The notes beneath the pieces are model-generated. The model searched no databases. It saw only the letters and a list, made by a program, of their open reading frames with translations, and was not told the DNA's origin. Positions 14,305-14,410 of a stretch of 64,000 nucleotides of DNA are shown here, piece after piece (position 1 is the first letter of the stretch; each line of letters opens with the position of its first letter). The translations under genes and the position numbers were made by a program. The stretch is taken from NCBI RefSeq assembly GCF_988242995.1, contig NZ_OZ547043.1, one strand, 5' to 3'.

Positions 14305-14410
14305 CATGCCGGATGCGGCGTAAACGCCTTATCCGGCCTACAAGATCGTGCAAATTCAATATATTGCAACTCACCCAGTAGGCCTGATAAGCGCAGCGCA
14401 TCAGGCAATT
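14305..14410. repeat. REP (repetitive extragenic palindrome) cluster
   Basis: gccggatgcggcgtaaacgccttatccggcctac and taggcctgataagcgcagcgcatcaggca motifs between convergent ugpB and livF. Confidence 0.8.

Follow-up and report, generated by a model that had tools for sequence, protein, structure and literature searches.

BIME-1 (bacterial interspersed mosaic element, family 1) is a repeat known from E. coli catalogues for about three decades, and is also named RIP (repetitive IHF-binding palindromic element) or RIB. REPs (repetitive extragenic palindromic sequences), from which it is built, are the specific target of the insertion sequence IS1397. A BIME-1 is defined as a z1 and a y REP in a single copy, with a long, well conserved L linker and frequently an IHF site, and 584 REPs were catalogued in K-12 in a study in which IS1397 is also mentioned (PMC3333891). 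BIME-2 contains REPs of the same superfamily, including the Y type, and is likewise intergenic, but differs in its short S linkers, its longer z2 partner and its organisation in tandem arrays of many copies. DNA gyrase cleavage is enriched in BIME-2, and gyrase targeting is not a BIME-1 property. In RNA, the closest described systems are the REPs that stabilise mRNA in malE-malF and hisJ-hisQ, which are intercistronic and set differential expression within the operon, and the protective stem-loops of Rho-terminated transcripts. According to a model put forward by Peters et al. and by Dar and Sorek, Rho ends transcripts diffusely downstream, exonucleases trim them, and a stem-loop without a U-tract, often a REP, sets and protects the 3' end (PMC6061677).

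Here, we analysed two REP-containing repeats in a 64-kb stretch of DNA (the window, in whose coordinates positions are given), one between livF and ugpB (copy 1) and the other between panZ and livJ (copy 2). They are very probably ordinary single-copy BIME-1 of the E. coli REP family whose transcribed hairpins would set and shield mRNA 3' ends; both are of an already known kind, with nothing unusual in anatomy or position. The elements and their neighbours are as follows.

12754-14070, minus strand: ugpB (ORFs and K-12 annotation)
14178-14206, minus strand: promoter-like site that overlaps Pho-box-like TGTCA repeats, on the ugpB side of the livF-ugpB gap
14307-14408, no strand assigned: BIME-1 copy 1, in plus-strand order Y-REP, linker, inverted Z-REP, between the livF stop and the ugpB promoter/Pho-box region
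14308-14341, plus strand: Y-type REP of copy 1, GCCGGATGCGGCGTAAACGCCTTATCCGGCCTAC, an imperfect palindrome with a CTAC end and its own hairpin in RNA folds
14342-14377, plus strand: L linker of copy 1, 36 nt, AAGATCGTGCAAATTCAATATATTGCAACTCACCCA, 81% to the family consensus AAAATCGTGCAAATTCAATATATTGCAGAAACCTT
14354-14366, plus strand: IHF-consensus-like core of copy 1, ATTCAATATATTG, one mismatch to WATCAANNNNTTR
14378-14407, plus strand: short Z-type (z1) REP of copy 1 in GTAG orientation, GTAGGCCTGATAAGCGCAGCGCATCAGGCA
14432-14451, minus strand: non-REP hairpin (stem 8 bp, loop 4 nt) that follows the livF stop after 17 nt, no U-tract
14468-15181, minus strand: livF, stop codon 14468-14470 (ORFs and K-12 annotation)
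up to ~19304, minus strand: livG, livM, livH and livK (K-12 annotation)
19728-20111, plus strand: panZ, stop 20109-20111
20151-20252, no strand assigned: BIME-1 copy 2, opposite to copy 1, in plus-strand order Z-REP, linker, Y-REP
20152-20181, minus strand: short Z-type (z1) REP of copy 2, the hairpin farther from the stop codon in livJ RNA and nearer to it in panZ RNA
20182-20217, minus strand: L linker of copy 2, 36 nt, diverged, 64% to the family consensus
20193-20205, minus strand: IHF-like core of copy 2, AATCAGTAAATTG, one mismatch to WATCAANNNNTTR
20218-20251, minus strand: Y-type REP of copy 2, identical to the Y-REP of copy 1
20284-20302, minus strand: non-REP hairpin that follows the livJ stop after 8 nt, no U-tract
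20311-21414, minus strand: livJ, stop 20311-20313

The original prediction had placed the repeats at the operon ends of two convergent gaps, which holds for one of them. The panZ-livJ gap is the sole convergent gap of the two, with panZ on the plus and livJ on the minus strand, whereas ugpB and livF are both on the minus strand, and the gap between them is a tandem one: it begins where the livKHMGF operon stops, with the 3' end of livF, and reaches as far as the ugpB promoter. The window is E. coli DNA, though not of K-12: over both gaps, it was 99-100% identical to the best complete E. coli genome and ~97-99% identical to K-12, whose RefSeq annotation contains no repeat features in either gap and hence no REP/RIP identifier. 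Copy 1 was present in K-12 with four substitutions, and copy 2 was found in K-12 and E. fergusonii. At window position 14334 (~6590 of the K-12 locus L001), the Y REP of copy 1 reads CTTATCAGGCCTAC in K-12 and not CTTATCCGGCCTAC, a single change by which one position of the Y stem becomes mismatched and the tail comes to resemble the Z type. Adjoining the Z REP of copy 2, a 12-bp segment (GACCAACGAGAA, 20138-20149) was present in the window, E. fergusonii and E. coli strain M00057 and absent from K-12, owing to which the distance from the panZ stop to the REP is ~41 nt in the window versus ~29 nt in K-12.

A repeat search over the whole 64-kb window recovered the two elements as an inverted repeat with arms at 14303-14422 and 20137-20256 (120 nt, 86% complementary). 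In a MAFFT alignment of 14295-14420(+) with 20143-20262(-), the Y-REP arms were identical, the Z-REP arms differed by one base (GTAGGCCTGATAAGCG[C/T]AGCGCATCAGGCA), and the two 36-nt linkers were ~67% identical. The claim that these are two REP clusters in near reverse complement was therefore borne out: alignment of both clusters gave high identity, the name REP cluster is correct for what are BIME-1 elements, and the boundaries first assigned to them (14305-14410 and 20153-20252) were off by 2-3 nt at most. The copies read as reverse complements because they are inserted in opposite orientations, and for no other reason; when aligned on the same strand they were still 74% alike, because each BIME is itself a quasi-palindrome. 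The perfect REP tail CTTATCMGGCCTAC occurs four times in the window, always within copies 1 and 2, where ~0.5 would be expected by chance, and none of 100 shuffled sequences reached five matches.

To place the two elements among their relatives, one genome per species was scanned with the pattern Y-tail, 28-45 nt, Z-tail, which returned at least 120 loci in Escherichia, Pseudocitrobacter, Citrobacter, Salmonella, Kosakonia and others. Few E. coli copies were among the matches listed, and the loci listed included none of the liv-region orthologues; the orthologous liv loci were fetched through PanZ homologues. One L-type linker, with the consensus AAAATCGTGCAAATTCAATATATTGCAGAAACCTT, was found in 103 of the 128 elements outside the window among the matches listed, and its modal length in these 103 was 35 nt. 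The Y arm of copies 1 and 2 differs from the commonest Y arm of the 103 listed elements at one position, the first of the 36-nt arm window, and five of the 103 have precisely the same 36-nt arm; the Z arms of both copies are among the commonest variants in the same 103 elements among the matches listed. In the loci examined, 76 of 86 copies paired the L linker with the short Z arm, GTAGGCCTGATAAGCG[C/T]AGCGCATCAGGCA, and six copies carried the long Z arm (z2). From the association with the L linker and from the published consensus, we take the short arm to be z1. Across 42 family members analysed for covariation, the arms were almost invariant, partly since the members had been chosen by an exact pattern.

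Several traits of the REP superfamily were found in the two elements. Their REPs are imperfect palindromes with GTAG/CTAC ends, they are intergenic, and the repeat is of high copy number, with a median of at least 25-40 matching places per E. coli genome by megablast. In E. coli M00057 (locus L123, 3213-4561), an IS1397-family element was found in the loop of the copy 2 Y REP, at about 20232-20236 of the window, and TAC or ATAC is repeated at both of its junctions; copy 2 thus also shows the superfamily trait of being an IS1397 target. REPs are further associated with a RAYT (TnpA(REP)) transposase in the genome, which would not be expected to be encoded within these 64 kb. With BIME-1, both copies share a Y and an inverted short Z REP, whose CTAC/GTAG ends face an L linker of ~35 nt with an IHF-consensus-like core, as well as a single copy per locus and a place outside genes, where transcription units have their 3' ends. 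They depart from the BIME-1 norm in nothing substantial: their linkers are 36 nt and not the modal 35 nt, and the copy 2 linker is diverged from the consensus and has AATCAGTAAATTG and not ATTCAATATATTG as its core. Unlike BIME-2 with its arrays, each gap contains exactly one REP pair, not a tandem array, and this pair has a long L linker.

The proposed role in RNA starts from the hairpins. RNA folds of the transcribed strands contained one hairpin per REP, with z-scores of -3.4 to -4.7 versus shuffles, and the centroid structure contained an alternative long Y:Z pairing. In the M63 data of published K-12 Term-seq, one 3' end on the minus strand was placed at 3598392, in the context ...GTAGGCCTGATAAGCGTAGCGCATCAGGCAATAT| (Adams et al. 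2021, PMC7815308, Supplementary file 1). When mapped on the K-12 gap, this end falls 5 nt beyond the stem formed by the distal (Z) REP of copy 2, so the livJ mRNA extends just to the BIME's far edge, which supports a barrier to exonucleases, and not an intrinsic terminator, as what defines the 3' end. No 3' ends of livF or panZ are listed in the same dataset (PMC7815308), and nothing relevant on a REP terminator at livJ was found in the literature. On the plus strand, bicyclomycin-sensitive (Rho) regions were reported at 3592793, antisense to livF, and at 3598762, antisense to livJ (PMC7815308, Supplementary file 2), which are ~130 and 265 nt, respectively, beyond the two BIMEs. Taken together, the livJ 3' end and the downstream Rho regions fit the Rho and trimming model of PMC6061677.

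Under this model, each transcribed REP is predicted to form a stable G+C-rich hairpin without a U-tract, transcription would pass through the element and stop further downstream, 3'-to-5' exonucleases (PNPase and RNase II) would trim the transcript back to the REP hairpin, and the hairpin would then become the steady-state 3' end and shield the upstream mRNA. For livJ, the passage, trimming and shielding are supported by the K-12 Term-seq data, and for livF and panZ we infer them. The proposal that the elements act as mRNA stabilisers accordingly has the K-12 3' end 3598392(-) behind it at livJ, while copy 1 would play the same part in livF RNA and, by its position, would also separate the liv operon end from the ugpB promoter. 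As DNA, the linker of each copy is, judging by the family, a likely IHF site. As with the REP stabilisers and the protective stem-loops of Rho transcripts, a hairpin without a U-tract follows the stop codon and, at livJ, the 3' end lies a few nt past it; unlike the REPs of malE-malF and hisJ-hisQ, both copies are located at operon ends. Another mode of REP action does not apply here. Down-regulation of translation by REPs through ribosome stalling reportedly needs, according to Liang, Rudd and Deutscher in 2015, a REP within ~15 nt of the stop codon, and the first REP is ~61 nt from the stop codon of livF, ~59 nt from that of livJ and ~41 nt from that of panZ.

Several other readings of the same elements were weighed. 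Stable G+C-rich hairpins shortly after stop codons would also be expected of Rho-independent (intrinsic) terminators of the liv and panZ transcripts, and the elements had been proposed to be terminators. In this intrinsic sense the proposal fails, since a T-run is missing after every REP hairpin of the two elements, on both strands, and a scan for terminators found no terminator-like sites on the minus strand of the livF-ugpB gap or on either strand of the panZ-livJ gap, from which it follows that copies 1 and 2 are not intrinsic terminators. The bicyclomycin-sensitive readthrough downstream of both elements on the plus strand argues in the same direction, as does O157:H7 Sakai, in which the BIME is replaced and livJ is followed by a separate canonical hairpin with a T-run, and intrinsic termination by the BIMEs is therefore very unlikely. 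The stop-proximal non-REP hairpins after both liv genes could protect the mRNAs instead of the REPs; the one at 14432-14451(-) was paired in both the MFE and the centroid structures and received no terminator call. That the elements give rise to REP-derived small RNAs of the naRNA4/CssrE or ES036/CssrF kind was suggested by Rfam matches of naRNA4 (RF02564) to both Y REPs (40.4 and 40.3 bits) and of ES036/CssrF (RF02751) to the copy 1 linker (14343-14385, 28.6 bits). These scores are, however, below the gathering scores of 59.5 for naRNA4 and 37.6 for ES036, and no match at these loci passes; the naRNA4 matches cover the 38 nt of the Y REP, yet are reported against the full 77-nt model, and no promoter-like site adjoins either element. 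As the Rfam models apparently come from REP- or BIME-derived sequence, cross-matches are expected for any copy, and the matches were read as such. Small RNA genes were rejected as candidates, and we give them the least credence of all the readings considered.

A role mainly in DNA is less improbable than these, though still unlikely. In such a role, the linker would bind IHF and bend the DNA, with an architectural or insulating effect, for example on the PhoB-dependent ugpB promoter ~100-200 bp from copy 1. Both linkers carry an IHF-like core with one mismatch to WATCAANNNNTTR, in the register found in 73 of 128 family members among the matches listed; the copy 1 core ATTCAATATATTG is the modal core (42/128 family members among the matches listed), and only 2.8% of random 36-nt segments of the window matched the IHF consensus this well. 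Copy 1 lies ~100 bp upstream of the Pho-box and the promoter-like site at 14178-14206, and an IHF site is frequent in the L linker of BIME-1 (PMC3333891). Against a main role in DNA, no IHF peak was found at either BIME in the IHF datasets examined, one of which has a peak within ugpB and not at the BIME (PMC8407004), and E. coli genomes with the TPR cassette described below keep the same ugpB promoter sequence up to ~14256 in the absence of the BIME, which indicates that the promoter does not need it. A further possibility concerns origin: the copies might be a specific pair, an inverted segmental duplication that brackets livKHMGF-panZ and could invert the 5.7-kb segment between them. Besides their 86% complementarity over 120 nt, both have linkers of 36 nt that start with AAGATC, compared with a family mode of 35 nt and AAAATC, the extra linker base falls in one common alignment column, and over the full element only 2/103 listed members match copy 2 as closely as copy 1 does. 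However, the likeness does not extend beyond the elements, whose flanks are unrelated. The linker identity of the pair (0.667) is about the family median (0.686, 103 listed elements), 58% of random family pairs among the matches listed are at least as alike in the linker, and copy 2 is no closer to copy 1 than are 76 of the 103 listed elements. Neither copy is the other's nearest relative among the 103 listed elements, the best linker matches of copy 2 among the matches listed are elements of other species, and 36-nt linkers with an AAG start also occur at other loci (L049 and L093). In addition, one gene order, ugp-liv-panZ-livJ-rpoH, is shared by K-12, O157, E. fergusonii, Salmonella, Citrobacter and Enterobacter, so there has been no inversion. 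The particular relation implied when the two were singled out together thus did not stand, and a specific pair has hardly any probability. From their sequences, the two copies appear to be alike through a shared dispersed family and not through copying of one from the other; a weak sub-lineage tie between them is compatible with the data, and nothing requires it. The 300-nt direct repeat at 18364-18663 and 20474-20773 (76% identity) reflects the paralogy of livK and livJ, whose proteins are ~77% identical, and has no connection with the BIMEs, which sit downstream of livF and livJ in opposite orientations.

The reading of copies 1 and 2 as ordinary BIME-1 was also viewed against the occupancy of the two gaps in other strains and species. 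Whole segments corresponding to window positions 14257-14467 and 20112-20310 were swapped for gene cassettes in other E. coli. The livF-ugpB gap was of the BIME type in 4629 of 5426 complete E. coli genomes, and in 660/5426 it contained instead a gene for a 248-aa TPR protein between livF and ugpB (O157:H7 Sakai, locus L122, 20300-21337). The panZ-livJ gap was of the BIME type in 3747/5426 and contained ataT-ataR, which encode the GNAT toxin AtaT and the TacA-type antitoxin AtaR, in 1625/5426 (Sakai, 26982-27927 of the same locus); BIME and ataRT together accounted for 5372 of the 5426 genomes at this gap. BIME and cassette are thus near-exclusive alternatives at each slot, and in O157:H7 Sakai both segments are wholly replaced. 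Both elements are dispensable, as the whole segment is replaced by a cassette in 12-30% of E. coli genomes.

Outside E. coli, E. fergusonii had the TPR cassette in the livF-ugpB gap and the same BIME-1 in the panZ-livJ gap. In Salmonella (locus L125, 1765-2741), fic/doc-phd occupied the first gap, and a tacA remnant with a 764-aa ORF the second. C. koseri (locus L126, 1664-2588) also carried fic/doc-phd between livF and ugpB, here bracketed by direct copies of one 30-nt genus-type REP, GTAGGCCCGGTAAGCGTAGCGCCACCGGGC, which suggests a REP-associated insertion or excision. E. hormaechei had REP pairs of its own genus in both gaps. Enterobacter (E. hormaechei) and Citrobacter (C. koseri) resemble the window in that REPs occur as inverted pairs at both places, beyond the livF 3' end and in the panZ-livJ gap, but these REPs are of own-genus sequence (GCCGGGTGGCGG...CCCGGCCTAC), with short linkers and no L linker or IHF core, unlike copies 1 and 2. 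All these showed that REP occupancy of both 3' slots is recurrent by position, with lineage-specific sequences, and dispensable. Since the slots hold either a REP pair or BIME or a cassette (TPR, ataRT, fic/phd or the tacA remnant), and a cassette is bracketed by REPs in C. koseri, both liv-flanking slots might be REP-marked exchange sites at which REPs or BIMEs, perhaps through RAYT or REP-to-REP recombination, drive the gain and loss of toxin-antitoxin cassettes. We put this forward tentatively, and regard it as doubtful, if somewhat less so than a main role in DNA.

Other repeats and RNAs were also observed in the window. A lone degenerate REP (…CTTATCTGGCCTAC) is located at 62099-62125, with a tail match at 62112, just downstream of an intrinsic-terminator-like hairpin with a T-run at ~62053-62081. 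G+C-rich Box C-like repeats (CCCTCTCCC...GGGAGAGGGTTAGGGTGAGGG) were found at 12598-12640, 12712-12751 and 30444-30484. The ugpB-ugpA gap of the window, 175 bp long, is taken up by two inverted Box C-like copies, whereas in K-12 and Sakai it measures 97 bp and contains a REP-like sequence instead; in K-12, the ugpB 3' end at 3590983 in Term-seq is at this REP-like sequence. Two small RNAs matched Rfam above the gathering score, RyhB at 3364-3428 (minus strand, 83 bits) and the Hfq-binding RNA STnc490 at 52623-52746 (minus strand, 145 bits).

The result consists of a BIME-1 label for two intergenic repeats and a corrected geometry, in which livF and ugpB are in tandem, and in itself it matters little. 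The alternation of BIME and cassette at two positions across thousands of E. coli genomes may serve as a natural experiment on the stability of neighbouring mRNAs or on the turnover of cassettes.
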